A stretch of DNA of 64,000 nt from contig CAZORL010000001.1 in NCBI GenBank assembly GCA_964582375.1, forward strand, positions 80,065-144,064, read 5' to 3'. The stretch's first letter is position 1. Each line of letters starts with the position of its first letter. The position numbers were made by a program, and so were the translations under genes. This DNA is from an uncultured Lachnospiraceae bacterium. Lineage in GTDB: Bacteria; Bacillota; Clostridia; Oscillospirales; CAG-272. This document shows positions 42,484 through 55,274 of this stretch, piece by piece. The notes beneath the pieces were generated by a model. It worked only from the letters and a program-made list of their open reading frames with translations, was not told the origin of the DNA and searched no databases.

Positions 42484-45400
42484 TTATTTTGCGACCGTCG
42501 CTTTAGTGGATTCCTTTTCACGCTTTCTCTGACTTTGTGCCTGTCTGAGATTGTCCTTTGCCGTTGCGAGCATAAGCTTTATGCGGTTTAGCTGATTGAC
42601 CTCGGATGCGCCCGGATCGTAATCGACGGCGGCGATATTCGAGTAGGGATAATCCTTCTTGATCGCCTTGATGACACCCTTTCCGACGACATGGTTTGGC
42701 AGACAGCCGAACGGCTGTACGCATACTATATTTGGTGCGCCGTCGTGTATCAGCTCGATCATCTCTCCGCAAAGGAACCATCCCTCGCCGTATTGATTGC
42801 AGATCGAAAGATATTTCTCGGCATATTCGGCAGTCTTTTCAATATCTGTCGGGGCAGAGAAACGCTTGCTGTTTTTAAGCGCATCCGCCGCAGGCGCACG
42901 AAGTGCCTTCAGTGCGTCAATACCGACATGCGATACGAGCAGACCCCAATATTGTGTTCCAAGCTCCTTTACCTTCGGTATCATGTTGTAGATGCACATC
43001 GACAAAAAGTCAAGAAAATCGGGAACGACCGCCTCTGCCCCTTCTTTTTCAAGAAGCTCAACAAGATTGTTGTTGGCGATCGGCATGTATTTTACGAGTA
43101 TCTCGCCGACAATGCCGACACGCGGCTTTTTCATGTCCTCGTATATCGGGAGAGTATCAAAATCGCTGACTATCTCACGGCATATCTCTTTGTACGAGAC
43201 TTTTTTGACCTTGCCCGAGAGAATGTCCGAGCATCTGCCGATCCATTTGTCGCGCAGTGCGTTTGCCGAACCGAGTTTGATCTCGTAAGGACGGGTGCGA
43301 TAGAGACAACGCATGATAACATCGCCCCAAATAAGCCCCTTCATTGCATCGATGAGCATGCCCGGCTTGATCTTGAATCCGCTGTTCTTCTCAAGCCCCT
43401 GTGCACTGAGCGATATGACCGGGATGTGAGAAAGCCCCGCACTGTCAAGTGCACGTCTGATAAATCCGACATAGTTGCTTGCTCTGCAACATCCGCCTGT
43501 CTGCGTCATCATGAGAGCAAGCTTTGAGGTGTCGTATTCGCCCGAGAGTACTGCGTCCATCATCTGCCCGACGGTTATGATCGACGGATAGCAGGCATCG
43601 TTGTTGACATATTTGAGCCCCATGTCCACCGCACGCTTTGACGGCTTGTCAAGCATTACGATGTTAAATCCGTTTTTCACAAATATGGGTTTCAATATGT
43701 CAAAATGTATCGGACTCATCGAGGGAGCGAGTATCGTATATCCCTCATCAAACATCTCTTTGGTAAATTCGACACGCTTGTAATCATATTTTTTCGTGTC
43801 GTTCCCCTCACCGCAGGAGAGTGCCTTTTTCATCTTCATTGCGGCGATAAGACTGCGCACTCGGATTCGAGCCGAGCCGAGATTGTTGACCTCGTCGATC
43901 TTAAGCACCGTGTAGAGCCTGCCCGCATTTTCGAGTATCTCGCACACCTGATCGGTGGTTACCGCATCAAGACCGCAACCGAATGAGTTAAGCTGAATAA
44001 GCTCAAGATCGTCACGACCGCAGACATATTCGGCGGCGGCATAAAGCCTTGCGTGATAGGTCCATTGATCGAGTACGCGAAGCTCACGACCGCTGCCCGC
44101 AGGGAGCGGAAGGCTGTCCTCGGTAAATACCGACAGCCCGAAGGATGCGATCATTTCGGGGATGCCGTGGTTGATCTCAGGATCGATGTGGTAGGGTCTG
44201 CCTGCCAAAACTATGCCGCACTTTCCTTCACGCTCCAGCTTGTCAAGCAGTCGTGCCCCTTCTTTTCTGATATCTTCCTTTGCGCGCGTTTGCTCTGCCC
44301 ACGCGAGTGCGGCGGCACGCTTTACCTCGCTCTTGTCGATCGACCAGACATCAAAGCATATCTCGCAAAGCCGTTTCGTGACCGTCTTTTCGTCGGTGAA
44401 TGCAAGGAATGGGTGGAGATATCTCACATTGTTTTCGGAGATCTCCTCCATGTTGTTCTTTATGTTCTCGGGGTAGGAGATGACCATCGGACAGTTGTAA
44501 TGATTCTTTGCATCCGAGCTTTCGGTGCGCTCGTAGAAAACACTCGGATGAAAGATCGTAGTTACTCCCTTTTCGATCAGCCATTTTACATGACCGTGAG
44601 CAAGCTTTGCGGGGTAACACTCAGACTCTGACGGAATGCTGTCCATTCCGAGCTGATATATCTTTCTGCTTGAGTAGGGCGAAAGAACTACCGAAAAGCC
44701 GAGCTCTTTGAAAAATGTTGCCCAGAACGGGTAGTTTTCGTATATGTTCAGAACTCTCGGAATGCCGATGACGCCGCGAGGAGCATCCTCTGCCGTAAGT
44801 GACTCGTATCCGAAGATCCTCGATCTCTTGTATTCGACCAGATCCTCTCCGCGTTGCCCGACGCCGTTTGCGCCGACCATCTTTTCGCATCTGTTTCCGG
44901 TGATGTATTTTTTGTTCGTGCTGAACGTGTTGACCGTCAGCATGCAGTTATTTTCACAGCCGCCGCAACGGGTCGTTCTGCTCTGATATGAAAAGCTGTC
45001 AAGCGAGTCAAGAGAGATGATCGAGCTTTCCTTGCCGTCGAAATGTTCTCTTGCGATCAATGCCGCACCGAAAGCTCCCATAAGACCGCTGATGTCGGGA
45101 CAGACAACATTTGTTCCCGTGATGCTCTCAAGTGCGCGCAGGACTGCCCTGTTGTAAAATGTTCCGCCCTGAACAACTATGTGACGCCCGAGATCATCCG
45201 AGCTTGCAAGCTTTATGACTTTGTACAGAGCGTTTTTGATGACAGAGTAAGCAAGACCTGCCGAAATGTCCGAAACGCTTGCACCCTCTTTTTGTGCCTG
45301 CTTGACATTCGAATTCATGAAAACGGTGCATCTTGTGCCGAGATCGACCGGGGCTTTTGCAAAGATCGCCTCTTTGGCAAACTCCTCAGCCGACATCGAA

Positions 45401-46806
45401 AGCGAGTTTGCAAAATTTTCGATAAATGAGCCGCAACCGGATGAGCATGCCTCGTTGAGCATGATCGAGTCGATCGCACCGTTTTTGAGGCGTATGCACT
45501 TCATGTCCTGACCGCCTATGTCAAGCACGCAGTCGGTCTCGGGATCAAAAAACTTTGCCGCAGTTGCATGTGCAACCGTTTCGACCTCGCCCTCGTCAAG
45601 CGAAAATGCCGCCTTCAAGAGCAGCTCGCCGTATCCGGTCGAGCACGCACGCGATATCCTTGCAGTCGCGGGAAGTGTGTCCCTCAGTTTTTTCATCGAG
45701 TCAAGGGCGGTCTTTACCGGATCGCCTTTGTTGCTCTCGTATGATGAATATAAAAGCTCGCCGTCCTCGCCGATAAGTGCGAGCTTTGTTGTGGTCGATC
45801 CTGCATCAATGCCCAAAAAGCAGTTTCCGACATATGTGGTCACATCACCCTTTTTGACTGTCGCTTCGGCGTGACGCTTGACAAACTCGCTGTATTCGCT
45901 CTCGTTTTTGAACAGTACGTCAAGACGCTTGGTCTCAAATTCCGAAACACCTTTCTCCGAAAGGGCGTGCGAAAGCTCGGAAAGCTTTATCTCACTTTGC
46001 GAGCCGTCGTTTTCCTTCTCGGAGGTCATTGCCGCGCCGATCGCGGCAAAAAGATGCGAATTTTCGGGGTCGATCACCTCGTCCTTGCCGAGATCGAGCG
46101 TTTTGATAAACAGCTTCTTAAGCTCGGGCAAAAAGTGCAGAGGACCGCCGAGAAAAGCGACCTTTCCTTTGATCGGCTTGCCGCACGCAAGTCCCGAAAC
46201 CGTCTGATTGACGACGGCTTGAAGAACCGAGGCGGCGATGTCTTCTCTTGCCGCACCGTCGTTTATGAGCGGCTGAATATCGGTCTTGGCAAAAACGCCG
46301 CATCGTGACGCTATGGGGTAGATCTCTCGCGCATTTGCGGCAAGAGTGTTAAGCCCCGAGGCGTCTGTTTGAAGCAGAGCTGCCATCTGATCGATAAACG
46401 ATCCCGTACCACCCGCACATACGCCGTTCATCCTTTCGTCAAGTCCGCCCGCAAAATAGATGATCTTTGCGTCCTCACCGCCGAGCTCGACCGCAACATC
46501 GGTGAGCGGATGATACTTTTTGAGTGCCGTCGCTACCGCAACGACCTCTTGAACGAATTTGATATTCAGCGATTTTGCGATGCCGATGGCACCCGAGCCG
46601 GTAATGCAGGCGGAGAGCGCAAGATCGCCGAGCGAATCGCGTGCCTCGTCGAGCAGACCGATCAGTGTCTGCTTTGTGTTTGCAAGATGTCGGCGATATT
46701 TTCCGAATACCGTTTTGCCCTCTTCGTCAATTATCGCAAGCTTAACCGTCGTTGATCCAATGTCAATTCCGGCATGAAAGCCGTGAAGAATATTTCCTTC
46801 TTTCAT
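42484..46806 (-). CDS. 1440-aa fusion: two BcrAD/BadFG-type (2-hydroxyacyl-CoA dehydratase activase-like) ATPase domains + dehydratase-component-like C-terminal region
   Basis: Two copies of the ASKHA/activase start motif (GIDIGSTTVKLAI at aa 14 and GIDAGSTTTKLAL at about aa 333), each followed by CAGGTGSF- or CSSGCGSF-type cluster-ligand regions. A Cys-rich linker (RCGGCENNC) and a long C-terminal region resemble the 'CoA-substrate-specific enzyme activase' large proteins. Confidence 0.8.
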   Translation of the reverse strand: MKEGNILHGFHAGIDIGSTTVKLAIIDEEGKTVFGKYRRHLANTKQTLIGLLDEARDSLGDLALSACITGSGAIGIAKSLNIKFVQEVVAVATALKKYHPLTDVAVELGGEDAKIIYFAGGLDERMNGVCAGGTGSFIDQMAALLQTDASGLNTLAANAREIYPIASRCGVFAKTDIQPLINDGAAREDIAASVLQAVVNQTVSGLACGKPIKGKVAFLGGPLHFLPELKKLFIKTLDLGKDEVIDPENSHLFAAIGAAMTSEKENDGSQSEIKLSELSHALSEKGVSEFETKRLDVLFKNESEYSEFVKRHAEATVKKGDVTTYVGNCFLGIDAGSTTTKLALIGEDGELLYSSYESNKGDPVKTALDSMKKLRDTLPATARISRACSTGYGELLLKAAFSLDEGEVETVAHATAAKFFDPETDCVLDIGGQDMKCIRLKNGAIDSIMLNEACSSGCGSFIENFANSLSMSAEEFAKEAIFAKAPVDLGTRCTVFMNSNVKQAQKEGASVSDISAGLAYSVIKNALYKVIKLASSDDLGRHIVVQGGTFYNRAVLRALESITGTNVVCPDISGLMGAFGAALIAREHFDGKESSIISLDSLDSFSYQSRTTRCGGCENNCMLTVNTFSTNKKYITGNRCEKMVGANGVGQRGEDLVEYKRSRIFGYESLTAEDAPRGVIGIPRVLNIYENYPFWATFFKELGFSVVLSPYSSRKIYQLGMDSIPSESECYPAKLAHGHVKWLIEKGVTTIFHPSVFYERTESSDAKNHYNCPMVISYPENIKNNMEEISENNVRYLHPFLAFTDEKTVTKRLCEICFDVWSIDKSEVKRAAALAWAEQTRAKEDIRKEGARLLDKLEREGKCGIVLAGRPYHIDPEINHGIPEMIASFGLSVFTEDSLPLPAGSGRELRVLDQWTYHARLYAAAEYVCGRDDLELIQLNSFGCGLDAVTTDQVCEILENAGRLYTVLKIDEVNNLGSARIRVRSLIAAMKMKKALSCGEGNDTKKYDYKRVEFTKEMFDEGYTILAPSMSPIHFDILKPIFVKNGFNIVMLDKPSKRAVDMGLKYVNNDACYPSIITVGQMMDAVLSGEYDTSKLALMMTQTGGCCRASNYVGFIRRALDSAGLSHIPVISLSAQGLEKNSGFKIKPGMLIDAMKGLIWGDVIMRCLYRTRPYEIKLGSANALRDKWIGRCSDILSGKVKKVSYKEICREIVSDFDTLPIYEDMKKPRVGIVGEILVKYMPIANNNLVELLEKEGAEAVVPDFLDFLSMCIYNMIPKVKELGTQYWGLLVSHVGIDALKALRAPAADALKNSKRFSAPTDIEKTAEYAEKYLSICNQYGEGWFLCGEMIELIHDGAPNIVCVQPFGCLPNHVVGKGVIKAIKKDYPYSNIAAVDYDPGASEVNQLNRIKLMLATAKDNLRQAQSQRKREKESTKATVAK

Positions 46807-47397: not shown

Positions 47398-47474
47398 TGG
47401 TGGAGACAATTGGAATCGAACCAATGACCTCATGCATGTCAAGCATGCACTCTAACCAGCTGAGCTATGCCTCC
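47398..47474 (-). tRNA. tRNA-Val (anticodon GAC), CCA-encoded
   Basis: The minus strand folds by hand as GGAGGCA-TA-GCTC-AGCTGGTTA-GAGT-G-CATGC-TTGACAT-GCATG-AGGTC-ATTGG-TTCGATT-CCAAT-TGTCTCC-A-CCA. All four stems pair (with G-U wobbles at 5-68 and 10-25), and U33 and A37 are present. 77 nt. Confidence 0.9.
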
Positions 47475-47679: not shown

Positions 47680-48549
47680 ATGAAAATCAAAGAAATACTT
47701 TCAAAAAACAGATCATCGGGTAAAAACACACTTTCCTTCGAGGTCTTTCCGCCAAAGACTTCATCGAGCGTTCAAAGCGTGATCGCCGCCGCCGAGAGCA
47801 TCGCAGCTCTTTCGCCCTCATTCATGAGTGTCACCTACGGTGCTGGAGGCGGATCGTCCGAGTACACGCTCTCCGTAGCCTCCGATCTTCAAAGAGTCGG
47901 AGTGACGGCACTTGCACATCTTACCTGTGTCGGCGCATCGCGTGAAGGAATATCGGAAAAACTTGAGCTTATAAAGAACGCCGGCATAGAAAACATACTT
48001 GCCCTGCGCGGTGACCTTCCCGCGGGCTATGTTCCCGGAGAGTTTAAGCACGCCTGCGAGCTTGTCGGTGCTATCAGAGCATCCGGCGATTTCTGTATCG
48101 GCGGTGCGTGTTACCCCGAGGGACACCCCGAATCGCCGACCCTTGACGACGATATAACCCATTTGAAGGAAAAGGCAGACTCGGGATGTGATTTCTTCAC
48201 CACTCAGATGTTTTTTGACAATAATATTTTCTATAACTTTATGTACAAGGTCAGAGATGCCGGTATCACGCTCCCGGTGATCGCCGGAATCATGCCCGTA
48301 ACAAAGGCGAAGCAGATAACTCGTATATGTACGCTGTCGGGATCGCCTCTGCCCGTGAAGTTCAGACGAATAGTCGAAAAATTCGGCGACAGCCCTGACG
48401 CAATGCGTCAGGCAGGGATCGCATATGCCACCGAGCAGATCATCGATCTGTACGCAAACGGTGTCGATGCCGTACATGTTTACTCGATGAACGATGCCGA
48501 TGTTGCCAAAAAGATATCCGATAATCTGTCATCGATCATCGGAATATAA
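47680..48549 (+). CDS. metF: Methylenetetrahydrofolate reductase
   Basis: 289 aa with the FEVFPPKT start, SVTYGAGG, LRGD and TQMFFD motifs. Confidence 0.9.
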   Translation: MKIKEILSKNRSSGKNTLSFEVFPPKTSSSVQSVIAAAESIAALSPSFMSVTYGAGGGSSEYTLSVASDLQRVGVTALAHLTCVGASREGISEKLELIKNAGIENILALRGDLPAGYVPGEFKHACELVGAIRASGDFCIGGACYPEGHPESPTLDDDITHLKEKADSGCDFFTTQMFFDNNIFYNFMYKVRDAGITLPVIAGIMPVTKAKQITRICTLSGSPLPVKFRRIVEKFGDSPDAMRQAGIAYATEQIIDLYANGVDAVHVYSMNDADVAKKISDNLSSIIGI

Positions 48550-48560
48550 GGGGTGATCTT

Positions 48561-50933
48561 TTGCGTACCGATATAACAAAGAAGATCCGCGAGAAGATAT
48601 TTTATCTCGATTGCGGAATGGGAACGTCGCTTCAAAACGCGGGGCTCGGACCAAATGAGTGCTCTGAGACCTTCGGTGCCGATCATCCCGAGCTCATTAC
48701 CGCACATCACGTTGCCTGCTACAATGCGGGTGCGGATGCCGTATACGCAAACACGTTCGGAATAAACGGTATTCGATATGATCTTGCCGAGTGCTCTCGC
48801 CTTGCCGCATCAGCTCTTTCGTGTGCAAATGCCGCAAGAGAGGTTGCCGAGCAAGAGGGCAGAGAGCTTTATGTCGGGCTGGATGTCGGTCCGACCGGCA
48901 AAATGCTCGCACCCTTTGGAGATCTGCCCTTTGAGGATGCCGTTGACGCTTTTGCCGCTCTCGTCAGATCGGCTGATCCTAAGCTGTATGATTTTATCGT
49001 CATCGAAACGATGACCGATATGTACGAGACAAAAGCCGCGGTAATCGCCGCAAAGGAAAATTCGGACAAGCCAATCTTTGTCACAAATGTTTACGGCTCC
49101 GATTGCAGAATGCTCACCGGCGGTACACCTGAGTCGATGGTGACGATGCTTGAGAGCCTCGGGGTCTGCGCGATCGGGCTGAACTGCTCACTTGGTCCAA
49201 AAGACATGACAGATACCGTAAAGCGTCTGTCGTCTGTCTGCTCACTGCCGATGATCGCAAAGCCAAACGCTGGGCTTCCCGATAAAGTCGGAGAGGATTT
49301 TGTGTATTCCGCCACCCCCGAGAGCTTTTCGGATGAAATGTCGGAACTTGTCAAAACAGGTGCGACCATTATCGGCGGATGTTGCGGAACGACTCCCGAA
49401 TTTATCTCTGCACTCGTAAAAAGAACATCCGATATGCCGCTTAGATTGCCATGTGTAAAGAGCCACTCTGCCGTGTGCTCATTTTCAAAAACGGTCTTCT
49501 TTGACGGCACGACCGTTCCGATCGGGGAGAGGATCAATCCGACCGGTAAAAAGAAGCTTAAAGAGGCACTTAAAGCCCACGATATGGCGTATATCACCGA
49601 ACAGGCTGTCGGTCAGGCTGAGAGGGGTGCGCTTGTCCTTGATGTCAATGTCGGTATGCCCGGCATCGACGAGGCGGATGTTATGCGTGAGGCGATCGAA
49701 TCGGTGCAATCGGTCTCCGATCTTCCGCTTCAGATCGACAGCAGTGACCCTGTCGTGCTTGAGGTCGGGATGCGCGCCTATATCGGCAAACCTCTTGTAA
49801 ATTCTGTAAACGGAAAAGAGGAGGTCATGCACGCCGTATTTCCTCTTGTGAAAAAATACGGCGGAACGCTTATCGCACTGACAATCGACGAAAACGGTAT
49901 TCCGGGCGATGCCGACGGCAGGATAGATATTGCCAAAAAGATAATAAAAACCGCCGCCGAATACGGTATATCCGAGCGGGATATAATAGTAGATCCTCTC
50001 GCCATGGCTGTGTCCGCCGAGCCGAATGCCGCGATCGTTTCGCTTGAATGCGTAAAAAGGCTTCATGAATGCGGCATTAGGACGAGCCTCGGTGTGTCAA
50101 ATGTTTCCTTCGGACTGCCCGATCGCGAGGCGGTCAACTCGACGTTTCTTGCGATGGCAATGCAGAACGGACTTTCTGCCGCGATAATCAATCCATATTC
50201 GATTGATACAATGAGAATAATGAGAGCCGCCGAAGTCATACTCGCAAGGGACGAAAACTGCGCAAATTATATAAATGCGGCCCTCGACACTCCTGCCGCC
50301 ACGCCGTCGGGTGCGGTGTCCGATGATATTACGCTCTACCGTGCGATCGTCAACGGCATGGCGGATAAGGCGGGTGAGCTTGCACTTGAAGAACTTCGGG
50401 TACGCGATCCGCTTGATATAGTCAATAAGGACATCATCCCCGCCCTTGACCGTGTCGGCACGGATTTCGAACAAAAGAAGGTCTTCCTTCCGTCACTGCT
50501 CACCGCCGCCCATGCGGTAAGTGCGGCGTTTGAGAAGATAAAGGCGACCCTTCCGAAAAACAGCGGCAAATATACGGTCGTAATTGCTACCGTGAAGGGC
50601 GATATTCACGATATAGGAAAGAACATCGTCGCAACACTGCTTGAAAATTACGGCTATAATGTGGTAGATCTCGGAAAAGATGTCCCTCCCGATACCGTTG
50701 CCGATGCGGCAATCGAAAGAGGAGCAAGACTTGTCGGGCTTTCTGCACTCATGACAACGACTCTTCCCGCAATGCAGGAGACCCTCGAGGTCCTGCATAA
50801 GAGATGCCCCGATGTTAAGACGGTTGTCGGCGGAGCTGTTGTCACCGATGAATGGGCGCGTTCGGTCGGCGCGGACAAATATGCCGCCGATGCAATGGAA
50901 ACAGTGCGATACGCAGAGGAACTTCTCTCATGA
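48561..50933 (+). CDS. metH: Cobalamin-dependent methionine synthase, short form (Hcy S-methyltransferase + pterin-binding + B12-binding; no AdoMet reactivation domain)
   Basis: TTG start with AAGGGGTG upstream. Hcy domain (LDCGMGT...GGCCGTTP), pterin-binding region (VLDVNVG...GVSNVSFG), and B12 motif GDIHDIGKNIV. It ends right after the B12 domain. Confidence 0.85.
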   Translation: MRTDITKKIREKIFYLDCGMGTSLQNAGLGPNECSETFGADHPELITAHHVACYNAGADAVYANTFGINGIRYDLAECSRLAASALSCANAAREVAEQEGRELYVGLDVGPTGKMLAPFGDLPFEDAVDAFAALVRSADPKLYDFIVIETMTDMYETKAAVIAAKENSDKPIFVTNVYGSDCRMLTGGTPESMVTMLESLGVCAIGLNCSLGPKDMTDTVKRLSSVCSLPMIAKPNAGLPDKVGEDFVYSATPESFSDEMSELVKTGATIIGGCCGTTPEFISALVKRTSDMPLRLPCVKSHSAVCSFSKTVFFDGTTVPIGERINPTGKKKLKEALKAHDMAYITEQAVGQAERGALVLDVNVGMPGIDEADVMREAIESVQSVSDLPLQIDSSDPVVLEVGMRAYIGKPLVNSVNGKEEVMHAVFPLVKKYGGTLIALTIDENGIPGDADGRIDIAKKIIKTAAEYGISERDIIVDPLAMAVSAEPNAAIVSLECVKRLHECGIRTSLGVSNVSFGLPDREAVNSTFLAMAMQNGLSAAIINPYSIDTMRIMRAAEVILARDENCANYINAALDTPAATPSGAVSDDITLYRAIVNGMADKAGELALEELRVRDPLDIVNKDIIPALDRVGTDFEQKKVFLPSLLTAAHAVSAAFEKIKATLPKNSGKYTVVIATVKGDIHDIGKNIVATLLENYGYNVVDLGKDVPPDTVADAAIERGARLVGLSALMTTTLPAMQETLEVLHKRCPDVKTVVGGAVVTDEWARSVGADKYAADAMETVRYAEELLS

Positions 50934-51421
50934 GTCCACACTTCTATGAAAAGCTAAATGCCTTTGCGGCAAAAAACAGATATTTGTCGGCATTTGTAAT
51001 GATCATCGATAAAGTGCTTGTGATCGGCATATCCTTGTCCTACCTGCTTTTGCTGATCTCGCTTTTTGTCGGTCGATCGGACAGATCTCTTGCGTCTTTG
51101 CTTATCCCTGCGATCTCGTTTGTCTTTGTGTCGCTGCTCCGATATCTTATCGATCGAGCACGACCATATGATAAACTGCATTTGCAGGAGATATTGAATG
51201 CACGAAAGAAGGGACGATCCTTCCCGAGCCGACATGTTTTCTCCGCATCCGTAATAGCGGCAACATTTTATCCGATCTGCCCTGCGGTGTCGATCGCTCT
51301 CTTCGCGGCGGCAGTCCTGCTTGCCTTTTGCCGAGTGGTCGGAGGTGTTCATTATATCTCCGATGTGTTCGTCGGGCTCGCCCTTGGTGCGGCAGTCGGA
51401 ATTTTGTATCTTTTTTTCTGA
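50930..51421 (+). CDS. PAP2-family membrane phosphatase
   Basis: Start set at ATG 50930 (MSPHFYEK), forming an ATGA overlap with the metH stop. PAP2 motifs SFPSRHVFSAS and GGVHYISDV. Confidence 0.75.
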   Translation: MSPHFYEKLNAFAAKNRYLSAFVMIIDKVLVIGISLSYLLLLISLFVGRSDRSLASLLIPAISFVFVSLLRYLIDRARPYDKLHLQEILNARKKGRSFPSRHVFSASVIAATFYPICPAVSIALFAAAVLLAFCRVVGGVHYISDVFVGLALGAAVGILYLFF

Positions 51422-51448
51422 TTTTTGTAAAAAATTCTTGACATTGTA

Positions 51449-51477
51449 TTGACATTTGTGTTCTTAAGTGATAGAAT
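51449..51477 (+). promoter_or_regulatory. Sigma-A-type promoter of the COG0523 module
   Basis: TTGACA (51449), a 17-nt spacer, then TAGAAT (51472). A second TTGACATT copy lies 11 nt upstream (51438). Confidence 0.6.
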
Positions 51478-51517
51478 ATCGATGTTCACAAAAAATAATA
51501 AAAAGAAGGTTATATAG

Positions 51518-52729
51518 ATGACGAAAACAAAAATCGTGATTTTCTCGGGCTTTCTCGGCGCGGGAAAGACAACTCTTATAAAAAAGCTTATCGCCGACGG
51601 ATACAGAGGCGAAAAGATCGTTCTTATCGAGAATGAATTCGGTCAGATAGGAATTGACGGCGGATTTCTCGGCGAATGCGGCGTTGAGATAACCGAAATG
51701 AACAGCGGTTGCATTTGCTGTTCGCTCGTCGGTGATTTCAGCAAGGCTCTTCGCAAGGTCATAGACGAATACGCTCCCGAGCGTATACTGATCGAGCCGT
51801 CGGGCGTCGGCAAGCTTTCGGATGTTGTCAGAGCTGTTCAGACGGTCATTGACGAGGGTGTAGAGCTTACCTCGTTCACAACCGTCGTTGATGCCTCGAA
51901 ATGCAAGATGTATATGAAAAACTTCGGCGAGTTCTATGACGATCAGGTATCAAACGCAAGCTGTATCGTTCTCAGCCACACAGGCAAGATGACCGATGCA
52001 AAGATTGCCGAGACGGTCGAAATGCTTCGCGAGAAGAATGCCGACGCAACGGTCGTTACCACCGATTGGGATAAGCTCTCGGGCACGCAGATCATCGAGG
52101 CAATGGAGCATACCGCAACGCTTAAAGCAGAGCTTGAACGCCTCGCAAATGATGTCGAGCACCATCATCATCACCACCATGATGAGGACGAATGCGACGA
52201 TCCCGATTGCGAGTGCCACCATCATCACCACCATGATGACGATGATGACGACGATCACGAGCATCACCATCACCATCACCATCACGACGAGGATGAATGT
52301 GACGATCCCGATTGCGAGTGCCATCATCACCATCACGATGACGATGACGACGACGATCACGAGCATCACCACCATCACCATCACGATGAGGATGAATGCG
52401 ACGATCCCGATTGCGAGTGCCACCACCATCACCACCATGATCACGATGCGGACGATGTTTTCTCAAGCTGGGGAATCGAAACAACTGCAAAATATACACC
52501 CGAGAGGATAAGCGAGATCCTCGGCGAGCTTTCGAGCAACAGCCGATACGGCACAATACTCCGCGCAAAGGGCATCGTTTGCGGACAGGATGATAGATGG
52601 ATACACTTTGATTATGTTCCGGGAGAGCCCGATGTCAGATACGGTGCGGCTATCGTTATCGGTCGTGTTTGCGTAATAGGCTCAGGACTTGACAAGAGTG
52701 CGATAGCAAAGCTTTTTGCCGTCGATTGA
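51518..52729 (+). CDS. COG0523/CobW-family metallochaperone GTPase with a roughly 100-aa His/Asp/Cys-rich repeat insert
   Basis: Walker A GFLGAGKTTLIKKL, ENEFG, the metal motif GCICCS, and IEPSGVG. The CobW_C-like end is WGIETTAKY...ILRAKGIV...VIGRVCVIG. Confidence 0.85.
   Translation: MTKTKIVIFSGFLGAGKTTLIKKLIADGYRGEKIVLIENEFGQIGIDGGFLGECGVEITEMNSGCICCSLVGDFSKALRKVIDEYAPERILIEPSGVGKLSDVVRAVQTVIDEGVELTSFTTVVDASKCKMYMKNFGEFYDDQVSNASCIVLSHTGKMTDAKIAETVEMLREKNADATVVTTDWDKLSGTQIIEAMEHTATLKAELERLANDVEHHHHHHHDEDECDDPDCECHHHHHHDDDDDDDHEHHHHHHHHDEDECDDPDCECHHHHHDDDDDDDHEHHHHHHHDEDECDDPDCECHHHHHHDHDADDVFSSWGIETTAKYTPERISEILGELSSNSRYGTILRAKGIVCGQDDRWIHFDYVPGEPDVRYGAAIVIGRVCVIGSGLDKSAIAKLFAVD
52160..52450 (+). 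repeat. In-frame tandem repeat, 3 x about 99 nt (33 aa: H7-8 DEDECDDPDCEC H5-6 D7 HE)
   Basis: The core GACGATCCCGATTGCGAGTGCCA is identical in all three units (about 52196, 52295, 52394). Flanks differ only by synonymous His/Asp codon swaps, and the third unit is truncated. Confidence 0.9.
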
Positions 52730-52740
52730 GAGGTTTTTGT

Positions 52741-53682
52741 ATGGAAATACCCGTATATCTTTTTACCGGCTTTTTAGAGGGCGGTAAGACAAAAGTAATT
52801 CAGGAGACTTTGAATGATCCGAATTTCAATTCGGGAGAGCGTTTCCTTCTCCTTGTTTGCGAGGAGGGAATTGAAGAATACGATCCGACTGCATTTGCCG
52901 CTCCGAATGTTTTCCTTGAGATCATCGACGATCAAAGCGGACTTACCGAGCAAAATCTTGACAGCCTTTGCAAAAAGCATGGGTGTGAGAGAGTCATCAT
53001 AGAGTATAACGGCATGTGGATGCTGAACGATCTCTACAGCGCACTGCCGAATGGCTGGATGGTCTATCAAGAGATCTTCTTTACCGATTGCACGACATTT
53101 GTCAGCTACAATGCCAATATGCGCCAGCTCACAGTCGATAAGCTTCAGTCTTGCGAGTCGGTCATACTTAATCGTGCACCGCGAGATGTTGATCAGACCG
53201 AGATACATAAGATCATTCGCGGAGTGAACAGGCGTTGCTCCATAGGATATGAATTTGAAGACGGCGAGTTTGTTTACGATAATATCGAAGATCCTCTGCC
53301 GTTCGATATAAACGCTCCGATAATCGAGATAAAGGACGAGGATTTTGCCGAATGGTATCGCGATATAAGCGAAGAGCCTCAAAAATATAACGGCAAGACC
53401 GTCAAATTCAAGGGAATCGTCGCGACATCGCCAAAACTCGGCAAGGGCAGCTTTGCCATCGGCAGACATGTTATGGTCTGCTGTTCGGACGATGTCAGCT
53501 ACTGCGCATTTGTTTGCAACTATAAGGGAAACGTCGCCCTTAACACAAGAGATTGGGTGATAGTCACCGCAAAGATTTCCATCGAAAAGCATAAGATCTA
53601 TCGTGGTGCCGGTCCCGTACTGACCGCCTCACAGGTAGCCATGACCACTCAACCGGAGCAACCGGTCGCAACATTCTACTAA
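52741..53682 (+). CDS. Soluble fusion: degenerate CobW-like N-domain + DUF1980-type C-terminal domain
   Basis: Start ATG 52741 (RBS GAGAGG). The N-terminus MEIPVYLFTGFLEGGKTKVI mimics the CobW P-loop but there is no CxCC motif. The C-terminus YNGKTVKFKGIV...FAIGRHVMVCCSDDVSYCAFV...DWVIVTAKIS resembles the DUF1980/TIGR03943 C-terminal domain. No TM helix. Confidence 0.6.
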   Translation: MEIPVYLFTGFLEGGKTKVIQETLNDPNFNSGERFLLLVCEEGIEEYDPTAFAAPNVFLEIIDDQSGLTEQNLDSLCKKHGCERVIIEYNGMWMLNDLYSALPNGWMVYQEIFFTDCTTFVSYNANMRQLTVDKLQSCESVILNRAPRDVDQTEIHKIIRGVNRRCSIGYEFEDGEFVYDNIEDPLPFDINAPIIEIKDEDFAEWYRDISEEPQKYNGKTVKFKGIVATSPKLGKGSFAIGRHVMVCCSDDVSYCAFVCNYKGNVALNTRDWVIVTAKISIEKHKIYRGAGPVLTASQVAMTTQPEQPVATFY

Positions 53683-53689
53683 ATTCGAC

Positions 53690-53740
53690 AAAAAACATCG
53701 ATCACAAGTCAAAATGTGATCGATGTTTTCGTTATTTCGT
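53690..53740. terminator. Bidirectional rho-independent terminator between convergent genes
   Basis: 15-bp stem AAAACATCGATCACA / TGTGATCGATGTTTT (53692-53729) with an A-run to the left and TTCGTTATTTCG to the right. Confidence 0.85.
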
Positions 53741-53750
53741 TATATTGAGA

Positions 53751-55274
53751 TCATACCAGCGGTGAAAAAAGTCTGAGCAGTGCGTACCAGATCTGCCCAA
53801 GAGCTCCCGTCCTTATGCTCATCTGCTTTGCGGGTGTCGAACGCTCGAGCGTCTTTAGAAAATCTTCCTTGACCTCTTTGACTATACTGCTTTTGTAGAA
53901 AAAGCATCCGCATTCAAAGTGGAGGTAGAGACTTCTGTAATCAAGATTTATCGATCCGACGGTCGCTATCTCGTCATCGCATACAAATGATTTCGCATGT
54001 ACAAATCCGGGGGTGTATTCGTAGATCTTTACGCCGTGCTTTATGAGGACGGGGTAGTAGGATCTTGTCAGCTGATAAACGATCTTTTTGTCGGGTATGC
54101 CGGGGGTTATGATACGAACATCCACACCACGCTTTGCCGCAAGAGTGAGAGCTGTTACGGTCTCGTTGTCGATTATCAGATAGGGCGTGAATATGTACAG
54201 ATATTTCTTTGAATTGTTGATGATGTTCAGATAGACATTTTCCGCGCATATCTCACTGTCAAGCGGTGAATCGCCGTAAGGCTGAACAAATCCGTCCGAT
54301 TCTATCTCCTTGCAATCTTCGGTCGGCATGAACTTTTCAAGCTCAATGTCTTCTGTGTGCGTTACATTCCATTGGTTGAGAAAGAGCAGGGTCAGATTTC
54401 GAACCGCCTCGCCCTCGATCATTACACCCGTGTCTTTCCAGTGCCCGAATTTGCTTGTCTTGTTAATGTATTCGTCTGCAAGATTTATTCCGCCCGTAAA
54501 GCCGATGTTGCCGTCTATGACTGTGATCTTTCGGTGATCGCGGTTGTTCATGATTATCGATAAAAACGGTCTGAATCTGTTGAAAACAAGGCATTTTATT
54601 CCATAGCTCTCAATCTCTTTCTCGTATTTGTCCGGAAGCTTGAAAAGACAGCCGACATCGTCGTATATCAGCCTGACATCAAGCCCTTCGGATGCCTTTC
54701 TTTTGAGTATTTCGAGAATGCTGTTCCACATCTCGCCCTTCTCGATGATGAAATATTCCATGAATATAAATCTCTTTGCTCCTTCGAGCTTTTCGAGAAG
54801 GATCGGAAAATTGTCGTCGCCGAGCGGATAATAGCTTGTCTTTGTGTGCCTGAAAACGGGAAAGCCGTTGTTTGAAAGATATCTGCATTGACCTGCCGCG
54901 TGCGGATCGATCGCCTCAAGCTCGTTCATCACTTCGGTGTCATCGGCAACATATTTCGATGTCAGCTCGTCCGCATTTCTGTAAAGAAATTTGCGATCTC
55001 TTATCGGATGCTTCATTCCGAACAGAACATAAATAACACCGCCGAACAGCGGAAAGACGAGCAAAGGCACGATCCATGCAAGCTTGACACTCGGATTTGA
55101 CTCCGAATTTATGACATGTACCATCATTAAAAATGACAGAAATTCAAGCAGTACAAAGACCCATAACTTCGATGTTCCGGCAAGTGACAGTATCAACACA
55201 AGAAAAGCAAGCTGAATGATGATCGCTACCGCATAAAAGAAGGTCCTGCCTCTTATTTTCTTTAGTAATTTCAT
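53751..55274 (-). CDS. cls: Cardiolipin synthase
   Basis: Two N-terminal TM helices and two HKD motifs (HRKITVIDG and HAKSFVCDD). Confidence 0.9.
   Translation of the reverse strand: MKLLKKIRGRTFFYAVAIIIQLAFLVLILSLAGTSKLWVFVLLEFLSFLMMVHVINSESNPSVKLAWIVPLLVFPLFGGVIYVLFGMKHPIRDRKFLYRNADELTSKYVADDTEVMNELEAIDPHAAGQCRYLSNNGFPVFRHTKTSYYPLGDDNFPILLEKLEGAKRFIFMEYFIIEKGEMWNSILEILKRKASEGLDVRLIYDDVGCLFKLPDKYEKEIESYGIKCLVFNRFRPFLSIIMNNRDHRKITVIDGNIGFTGGINLADEYINKTSKFGHWKDTGVMIEGEAVRNLTLLFLNQWNVTHTEDIELEKFMPTEDCKEIESDGFVQPYGDSPLDSEICAENVYLNIINNSKKYLYIFTPYLIIDNETVTALTLAAKRGVDVRIITPGIPDKKIVYQLTRSYYPVLIKHGVKIYEYTPGFVHAKSFVCDDEIATVGSINLDYRSLYLHFECGCFFYKSSIVKEVKEDFLKTLERSTPAKQMSIRTGALGQIWYALLRLFSPLV

Follow-up and report, generated by a model that had tools for sequence, protein, structure and literature searches.

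What is the role of a gene pair that combines a COG0523-family protein with a soluble relative in which a second G-domain is fused to the C-terminal domain of DUF1980 (DUF1980_C)? The question is raised by a two-gene unit in a 64,000-nucleotide (nt) stretch of contig CAZORL010000001.1 (assembly GCA_964582375.1) from an uncultured Lachnospiraceae bacterium; we refer to this whole stretch as the window and number positions from its first letter. Based on sequence comparison, we propose, at roughly even chances of being right, that the two proteins form a dedicated, nucleotide-gated pair that handles metal in the cytosol. An earlier note, made from the letters of the window, had suggested a metal hand-off or storage couple, and we infer that the evidence presented here strengthens that reading. 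Full-text literature searches found no paper describing the gene pair, the soluble fusion or the cobW::ArsP_1 fusion discussed below.

The two proteins and their joint inheritance

Judged by its sequence, the upstream gene (gene 1) encodes a bona fide COG0523 protein. Pfam cobW (PF02492) matches its G-domain at 127.7 bits (cutoff 20.7, E = 4.7e-37), CobW_C matches at 30.2 bits (cutoff 22, E = 4.2e-7), and E. coli YjiA is the nearest solved structure (1.2e-17). The hallmarks that had been read from the letters, namely GFLGAGKT, GCICCS (here G64-C-I-C-C-S69) and a CobW_C-like end, are thereby borne out. Among 65 orthologues, the switch I sequence IENEFG and the Walker B sequence ILIEPSG (within ILIEPSGVGK) show little or no variation, like the Walker A and CxCC motifs listed in Table 1, and all full-length orthologues scored have R[AS]KG. 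In characterized COG0523 proteins, CxCC is the family-defining high-affinity zinc site and RxKG is the arginine-finger motif of the C-terminal domain, which drives 'self-gapping' in ZigA and MigC (PMC13001444). Gene 1 falls below the curated equivalog cutoffs for CobW (TIGR02475, 87.7 against 332 bits), YjiA-like proteins (NF008578, 83.3 against 361), ZigA (NF038288, 65.7 against 600) and the CobW-related selenoprotein (NF041053, 80.3 against 180).

The G-domain and CobW_C are separated by a linker rich in potential metal ligands, with 43 His, 9 Cys and 49 Asp/Glu between residues 197 and 316. The underlying tandem DNA repeat encodes units of the form HHHHHH-DEDECDDPDCEC-HHHHHH-DDDDDDDHE. The insert had been described as unusually long; an acidic, His- and Cys-containing insert is indeed present and is a true tandem repeat, but its length and composition are the rule in this subfamily. 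Across loci, orthologue linkers span 40-208 residues with 9-88 His and 0-18 Cys, their repeat units vary by lineage (CDDPxCxC, CxCGC, CxC), and nearly all end in HHHH-A-D-[DE]-[VI]-F. Since similarly long and lineage-variable linkers occur in the orthologues, we regard the insert as family-typical and fast-evolving. Long open reading frames (ORFs) also span the His/Asp repeat at 51950-52444 (- strand), 51996-52511 (+ strand) and 52122-52568 (- strand); we take these antisense and off-frame ORFs to be side effects of the CAY/GAY codon repeat and not genes. At several related loci the greedy ORF caller chose such a repeat ORF over the real gene.

The linkers also lend themselves to another explanation, in which the His/Cys-rich COG0523 protein is mainly a metal store or buffer that sequesters ions like Hpn or His-rich HypB, with gene 2 as its release or loading factor, so that the pair serves storage or detoxification in place of targeted delivery. 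The many His and up to 18 Cys, the quick expansion and contraction of the linker between lineages, and the strong constitutive-looking promoter with no metal-starvation operator found (see below) would all fit. His stretches in G3E proteins have moreover been tied to a chaperone or metal-binding role, and 18 Ni per dimer are cited for the His stretch of a Bradyrhizobium protein (Haas et al., 2009, PMC2770081). However, the strict conservation of CxCC, RxKG and the nucleotide motifs of both genes argues for a catalytic cycle and not for passive storage, and in one orthologue (locus L040) the linker has only 9 His in 40 residues. We therefore consider a store or buffer unlikely.

Gene 2 ends in an unambiguous DUF1980_C domain (PF21537, 78.3 bits, cutoff 25.9, E = 6e-22). 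Its N-terminal half, which had been said to start like a CobW GTPase, scores 19.2 bits against Pfam cobW (E = 9.7e-4), slightly below the 20.7-bit cutoff, and searching the Protein Data Bank with the gene 2 sequence alone returned no significant match. A family profile was needed to reach YjiA, which it does at 1.5e-10 over positions 4-170. All 19 diverse relatives inspected (30-59% identity) match both cobW (best 1.3e-12) and DUF1980_C, and BLASTP aligns gene 2 with the G-domain of gene 1 at 2e-7. The profile search that the earlier note had set in advance as its check thus finds gene 2 significantly similar to both the CobW and the DUF1980_C domains.

An AlphaFold model of gene 2 (64 homologues, mean predicted local distance difference test 90.6) predicts a G3E fold followed by an oligonucleotide/oligosaccharide-binding (OB) fold. 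HypB is the top structural match of the N-terminal half, which also matches signal recognition particle GTPases, UreG and MeaB. The C-terminal half matches OB folds, the best chain being 8d0b_C of the human CST complex (target-normalized template modeling score 0.65), which we take to be TEN1. That chain and the MCM N-terminal domain, as the top matches of the C-domain, could indicate that the OB fold binds nucleic acid or another non-metal ligand and that the pair is a metal-independent GTPase switch whose target is RNA, DNA or the ribosome. Sequence identity to the matched folds is nevertheless about 11%, and conservation falls on Cys-Cys, Asp, Met and Arg, with no aromatic or basic nucleic-acid-binding surface. 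Furthermore, the sole other context in which DUF1980_C was observed adjoins a metal/metalloid permease family, and the partner protein is rich in His and carries CxCC. We regard such a switch as very improbable.

Residue conservation suggests that both halves of gene 2 are maintained. Down to 30% identity, G10, G15, K16, T17, E41, G43, E88, N90, N144, R145, P187 and R242 are invariant, and M245, C247 and D251 are conserved at 90% or more. With the Walker A, switch and Walker B residues invariant, the nucleoside triphosphatase (NTPase) looks functional. As had been claimed, the CxCC site is lost: the segment is deleted relative to both YjiA and gene 1, and the Pfam scan of gene 2 gave no CobW_C match. 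Gene 2 is therefore better described as a COG0523 paralogue than as a member in the strict sense, and its G-domain, in which only the CxCC loop is gone, has probably not decayed but remained an active NTPase.

In the C-terminal domain, the predicted R-x-x-M-x-CC-x-D-D signature is present at R242-D251, and its core R-x-x-M-x-CC-x-x-D is, judging from the alignments, under strong constraint and alignable with canonical TIGR03943 proteins. A role of R242 as an arginine finger for the protein's own G-domain was considered and found weak, since this Arg is equally conserved in canonical proteins from NTPase-free systems. Soluble and membrane-anchored DUF1980_C proteins also keep a C-terminal tail (53644-53679 in the window; canonical examples in loci L082 and L083), which may be a docking motif; its sequence is P-E-x-x-V-A-T-F-Y in soluble proteins and P-x-x-x-Y-V-Y in canonical ones.

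Both proteins appear to be soluble. The N-terminal membrane domain of DUF1980 (PF09323) has no match in gene 2 at E <= 1 and none in the 19 relatives, and neither protein contains a segment resembling a transmembrane (TM) helix: the maximum 19-residue hydropathy is 1.45 for gene 1 and 0.91 for gene 2, compared with 1.8-2.6 for canonical TIGR03943 proteins. Consistent with this, gene 2 reaches 79.3 bits against NCBIfam TIGR03943 (cutoff 88.8) and covers only model positions 96-220. Because its DUF1980_C is joined to a P-loop NTPase, the domain must be cytosolic in this protein. Database names of both proteins are generic or misleading ('GTPase', 'GTP-binding protein', 'membrane protein YcgQ', 'TIGR03943 family putative permease subunit'). 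In records P0035, P0049, P0076, P0322 and P0374 the soluble fusion is named 'membrane protein YcgQ', 'putative membrane protein' or 'TIGR03943 family putative permease subunit'; given that the window protein and a Vescimonas relative have no TM helix and the 19 relatives no membrane domain, such names look like annotation carry-over.

The two genes are inherited together. Among the best 80 genome loci, each surveyed together with as much as 6 kb on either side, 78 have upstream sequence, and in all 78 gene 2 is directly preceded on the same strand by a COG0523 gene of the gene 1 type, typically across a short intergenic spacer. The pair is also intact in six of six distant loci at about 30-47% identity (Anaerovorax odorimutans, two further Anaerovoracaceae-clade assemblies, Hominifimenecus, a Eubacteriales metagenome-assembled genome (MAG) and one other assembly). 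The co-conservation survey proposed beforehand by the earlier note accordingly found both genes at every checkable locus. The best 80 loci carry the labels Oscillospiraceae, Ruminococcus/Ruminococcaceae, Acutalibacteraceae and Monoglobaceae or come from MAGs labelled Lachnospiraceae, and the pair occurs in Vescimonas fastidiosa and Subdoligranulum variabile too. Clustering of ORFs of at least 90 residues in the 80 loci revealed no third conserved gene, and the same-strand ORFs upstream of the pair are heterogeneous.

The gene 2 family is large, with at least 7,999 significant relatives, found among 8,000 scored candidates (90%-identity clusters). Among 50%-identity representatives, searched exhaustively, 2,464 match at E <= 1e-3, of which 323 reach E <= 1e-30. 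Full-length members measure about 310-320 residues and reach down to 30% identity. Being large and concentrated in gut and rumen Clostridia, the family probably contributes to metal economy there.

Domain arrangements of DUF1980_C and the missing permease

In the canonical TIGR03943/DUF1980 architecture, 2-3 N-terminal TM helices (PF09323) precede DUF1980_C. The gene for such a protein lies directly 3' of an ArsP_1 permease gene (PF03773) in C. butyricum, C. beijerinckii, Priestia megaterium pBM400 and a Bacillus species, so that the earlier description of DUF1980 as normally membrane-tethered and permease-partnered holds true for these loci. In the Bacillus species the permease-DUF1980 locus adjoins CorA. 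Plasmid pBM400 (locus L083, 2153-6366 and 6508-8772) carries two tandem permease and TIGR03943 pairs beside the copper-handling genes YcnI and CopC, and one Priestia TIGR03943 protein has a His/Cys loop, HDHNCDCGCGHSHE, that resembles the linker units of gene 1.

Clostridium sensu stricto (C. butyricum, C. beijerinckii and others) offers another architecture, an ArsP_1 permease with an N-terminal COG0523-like G-domain that has no CxCC (GLLESGKT, QDEFG, IETNG). By BLASTP this N-domain matches the G-domain of gene 1 at 1e-17 and that of gene 2 at 2e-9. The combination of PF02492 and PF03773 is found in 120 of the 120 best matches to the Clostridium permease, and in the inspected loci the next gene encodes a membrane-anchored DUF1980 protein (L082, 3904-5517 and 5584-6384; L092, 6001-8471; L093, 6001-8538). 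Three arrangements are thus observed: a permease followed by a TM-anchored DUF1980 protein; an NTPase-permease fusion followed by a TM-anchored DUF1980 protein; and, in the window, a COG0523 protein followed by an NTPase-DUF1980_C fusion with no permease within about 6 kb. By domain-fusion (Rosetta-stone) logic, the cobW::ArsP_1 fusion with its adjacent DUF1980 gene places the NTPase, the permease and DUF1980_C in one functional system and suggests that the CxCC-less NTPase and DUF1980_C work together.

These arrangements leave room for the pair to be the soluble half of a split transporter: the Clostridium machine with its parts redistributed, gene 2 being fed by gene 1, docking on an ArsP_1-type, thiol-lined permease encoded elsewhere and gating or energizing the import or efflux of a soft metal or metalloid. 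DUF1980_C adjoins an ArsP_1-type permease in all canonical loci inspected, the cobW::ArsP_1 fusions place NTPase action at the permease, and the permeases carry CxC motifs (e.g. PACECG, PICDCG). The ArsP_1 family includes the organoarsenical exporter ArsP (PMC7176098), another relative carries the database annotation Cu/Zn efflux transporter, and in Shewanella loihica a zinc-stress fitness assay singled out an ArsP/DUF318 relative, which was called a heavy-metal efflux gene (bioRxiv 10.1101/072470).

Against a split transporter, ArsP_1 permeases are missing from the 64-kb window, from the roughly 6 kb around the pair in the 80 loci and from the called genes of the six distant loci, and the claim that the fusion has neither a TM helix nor a permease nearby therefore stands. 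Systematic unlinking would be unusual given the adjacency of permease and DUF1980 in all inspected canonical loci, and gene 2 lacks the N-terminal membrane domain that is presumed to contact the permease. We consider it unlikely that the pair is the soluble half of a transporter.

Promoter, terminator and genomic neighborhood

The two-gene unit is self-contained, with its own promoter and terminator (Table 1). Two perfect TTGACA hexamers spaced 11 nt apart lie upstream, of which just the second has a correctly spaced -10 element. The resulting site, 40 nt 5' of gene 1, is the top-scoring one of the region and agrees with the consensus at 11 of 12 positions, with a TG before the -10, in line with the near-consensus promoter that had been predicted. 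Expression appears, from these sequence elements, to be driven by a strong, constitutive-looking sigma-70 promoter that may be free of Zur control. An own strong promoter is found at many loci, and at a few the pair closes unrelated operons.

The gene 2 start codon is an ATG, 11 nt past the gene 1 stop as previously described, and homologues begin at the same M-[ED]-I-P-V-Y. The hairpin following gene 2 has a free energy of -20.8 kcal/mol (z = -5.2 against shuffles) and, with its A-run and T-run, agrees with the strong bidirectional terminator proposed; it is shared with a convergent cardiolipin synthase gene (cls) ending at 53751. Base composition of the locus is unremarkable, with no GC anomaly of the kind that marks horizontal transfer. 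Rfam has no family upstream of gene 1 and, in the whole window, matches one tRNA only and no riboswitch.

Table 1. Features of the two-gene unit, in window coordinates.
Feature	Position	Strand	Details
Promoter region	51438..51477	+	Two TTGACA hexamers, the second with a 17-nt spacer and extended -10
First TTGACA hexamer	51438-51443	+	Without a properly spaced -10
Second TTGACA hexamer (-35)	51449-51454	+	Properly spaced -10 present
-10 element TAGAAT	51472-51477	+	Extended TGaTAGAAT, 51469-51477
Gene 1, COG0523-family G3E NTPase	51518..52729	+	403 residues; Pfam cobW, CobW_C
Gene 1 domains			G-domain residues 6-180; linker about residues 214-310; CobW_C residues 315-401
Gene 1 Walker A, GFLGAGKT	51548..51571	+	Residues 11-18; invariant in 65 orthologues except one A15S
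Gene 1 CxCC metal site, C65-I-C67-C68	51710..51721	+	Invariant in 65 orthologues
Tandem DNA repeat	52156..52456	+	About 3 copies, period 99-102 nt; Tandem Repeats Finder, 84-86% matches
Gene 1 RxKG motif, R349-A-K-G	52562..52573	+	Residues 349-352; CobW_C domain
Intergenic spacer, gaggtttttgt	52730..52740	+	11 nt; holds the gene 2 ribosome-binding site (GAGG)
Gene 2, soluble G-domain::DUF1980_C fusion	52741..53682	+	313 residues; Pfam, profile, model
Gene 2 domains			G-domain residues 1 to about 180, without CxCC; DUF1980_C residues 191-308
Gene 2 Walker A, GFLEGGKT	52768..52791	+	Residues 10-17; G10, G15, K16, T17 invariant to 30% identity
Gene 2 signature, R242-H-V-M245-V-C247-C248-S-D250-D251	53464..53493	+	DUF1980_C motif; putative thiolate metal site
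Intrinsic terminator hairpin	53692..53729	.	15-bp stem, 8-nt loop; A-run 5', T-run 3'

Upstream of the unit lie a tRNA gene (47401-47474, - strand), metF, encoding methylenetetrahydrofolate reductase (47680-48549, + strand), metH (48561-50933, + strand) and an ORF for a PAP2 phosphatase (50852-51421, + strand). The PAP2 ORF as called overlaps the end of metH, and this gene alone separates metF-metH from the pair. In Pfam, the 790-residue MetH shows homocysteine-methyltransferase, pterin-binding and B12-binding domains only. Farther upstream, an unrelated 1440-residue protein (42484-46806, - strand) combines a BcrAD_BadFG ATPase with DUF2229 and is annotated by Pfam as being of the CoA enzyme activase type.

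The earlier note had placed the module directly downstream of the metH operon and left open whether this is meaningful. metF-metH does lie just upstream, with the PAP2 gene between, but the adjacency is no feature of the family: it occurs in L001 and L003 only, which are close relatives, and L043 has metF directly downstream. This confinement rules out metF/metH linkage as a family trait, and the metH adjacency is local synteny. Together with the CobW name it nevertheless brings up a cobalt- or B12-specific module serving the neighboring B12-dependent methionine synthase or corrinoid metabolism, which the upstream metF-metH and the downstream metF of L043 would suit, and COG0523 genes cluster with corrinoid methyltransferases in some clostridia and archaea (Haas et al., PMC2770081). 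On the other side, gene 1 scores 87.7 bits where the CobW equivalog TIGR02475 demands 332, the metH adjacency is confined to the two close relatives, no cobalamin riboswitch is found by Rfam in the whole window, and the module has its own promoter. A dedicated role in cobalt or B12 metabolism is therefore improbable.

At other loci, different neighbors are seen. The pair follows, on the same strand, folE-HD-folP-folBK, a conserved small ORF of about 100 residues with no Pfam match and a NUDIX gene in two loci of the Anaerovoracaceae clade; a third locus of that clade retains only the small ORF and NUDIX (L084, 2011-7942; L087, 2043-7945; L088, 4856-7942). In a metagenome contig that encodes a protein of Hominifimenecus microfluidus type (L085, 5462-5734), a 90-residue TM1266-like ORF overlaps the COG0523 start. 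Seen at no other locus and not in the window, this ORF was rejected as a conserved partner.

A proposed metal relay and its relation to known systems

How might the metal-handling pair operate? We propose that gene 1 would bind metal at its high-affinity CxCC site, with RxKG in CobW_C as its arginine finger, and that the His/Cys/Asp linker probably serves as a low-affinity metal reservoir or antenna. The gene 2 G-domain, which lacks CxCC and the C-terminal domain, resembles in this respect the dimerizing HypB and UreG; we therefore suggest by analogy that the G-domains of gene 1 and gene 2 associate in a nucleoside triphosphate (NTP)-dependent manner, as those of HypB and UreG do. A thiophilic metal would then pass from one protein to the other, with CxCC in gene 1 and CC/Asp/Met on the gene 2 OB domain as the two binding sites, and NTP hydrolysis would gate its release to an acceptor, either client enzymes or an unlinked ArsP_1-type permease.

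The metal is, by analogy, most likely zinc; nickel, cobalt and copper are also possible. Zinc is favored by the zinc-binding CxCC of COG0523 proteins, by the zinc-stress result for the Shewanella ArsP/DUF318 relative and by the folE-folP-folBK context in the two Anaerovoracaceae-clade loci, since the B. subtilis COG0523 chaperone ZagA reportedly targets FolE (PMC11672702). The His/Cys loop of the Priestia TIGR03943 protein and the Cu/Zn efflux annotation of a permease relative also point to metals.

Several observations weigh against a nucleotide-gated, zinc-handling pair. The gene 1 segment that aligns to the G4 motif TKTD of YjiA reads S-H-T-G and departs from the canonical [NT]KxD; across the 65 orthologues, S is found in 65, H and R in 48 and 17, T in 64 and the final D in 21. 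Together with the N-R at the G4 of gene 2, this S-[H/R]-T-x makes GTP specificity uncertain. A rough positive-inside reading indicates that the C-domain of canonical TIGR03943 proteins could be extracytoplasmic, which would weaken the case for its docking to a cytosolic NTPase. Both the folate and the metH neighborhood occur only in particular clades.

Regulation is similarly uninformative. The absence of a recognizable Zur/Fur-type operator, reported before for the window, extends to 67 orthologous upstream regions, in which Zur, Fur and PerR boxes show no enrichment over shuffles; the Zur box scored is of the B. subtilis type, from which the clostridial motif may diverge. Palindromes in these regions are lineage-specific only, and no riboswitch was found upstream in the 67 orthologous loci. 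Without a metal-responsive operator or riboswitch, regulation points to no particular metal.

More tentatively, it is possible, if doubtful, that the soluble pair represents a minimal cytosolic version of a previously unrecognized thiolate metal relay driven by nucleotides, with DUF1980_C as a new OB-fold hand-off domain that works with COG0523-type NTPases. If such a relay is real, the widespread ArsP_1 and DUF1980 complexes would transport zinc or a different soft metal with the help of a chaperone; among them are ScfAB, which is needed for group A streptococcal virulence, SMU.746/747 and YcgRQ. For these systems virulence, acid-tolerance and biofilm phenotypes are on record with no known substrate (PMC5584981). 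The heterodimer of gene 1 and gene 2 would moreover give the COG0523 family its first case of a dedicated partner that is genetically fixed.

COG0523 proteins occur in all kingdoms and are relevant to zinc starvation and infection, and their partners and clients are mostly unknown. Because this subfamily has an obligate partner that is inherited with it, interaction and metal transfer can be tested directly. The pair moreover ties COG0523 to the uncharacterized DUF1980/ArsP_1 systems: DUF1980_C is otherwise known from membrane-bound 'permease complexes' with virulence and acid-tolerance phenotypes, and a soluble, NTPase-fused version that is easily purified offers a way to learn the ligand of this domain.

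Compared with known systems, gene 1 follows the two-domain plan of COG0523 proteins such as E. coli YjiA, B. subtilis ZagA/YciC, A. baumannii ZigA/MigC and eukaryotic ZNG1, sharing Walker A, ENEFG, CxCC, Walker B, a variable linker and CobW_C with RxKG. A His-rich stretch is present in about 40% of COG0523 proteins (PMC2770081). Gene 1 differs from the named members in remaining below the equivalog cutoffs, in its divergent G4 and in having no detected Zur box. Its constant partner, a CxCC-less paralogue fused to DUF1980_C, is of a kind that no paper found describes for a COG0523 protein.

With the ArsP_1-partnered DUF1980 proteins of S. pyogenes ScfAB, S. mutans SMU.746/747 and B. subtilis YcgRQ, gene 2 shares DUF1980_C, its R-x-x-[MI]-x-CC-x-x-D signature and the C-terminal aromatic tail. 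Unlike them, it is cytosolic and has no N-terminal membrane domain, TM helix or adjoining permease. The Clostridium cobW::ArsP_1 and DUF1980 system draws on the same three modules, a CxCC-less G-domain, the permease system and DUF1980_C; there the NTPase sits on the permease and DUF1980 is membrane-anchored, whereas in the window the NTPase sits on DUF1980_C with no membrane parts and is accompanied by a complete COG0523 protein rich in His.

HypB and UreG, finally, resemble the gene 2 G-domain in lacking CxCC and CobW_C, and HypB is its top structural match. Both act as GTP-stabilized G-domain dimers (PMC13001444), and most HypB proteins have His-rich stretches (PMC2770081). By sequence the gene 2 G-domain is nearer to COG0523, as its profile match to YjiA indicates, and in contrast to the nickel-insertion setting of HypB and UreG there are no hydrogenase or urease genes near the window pair. 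HypB and UreG dimerize with their own copy, whereas the predicted partner of gene 2 is a paralogue.

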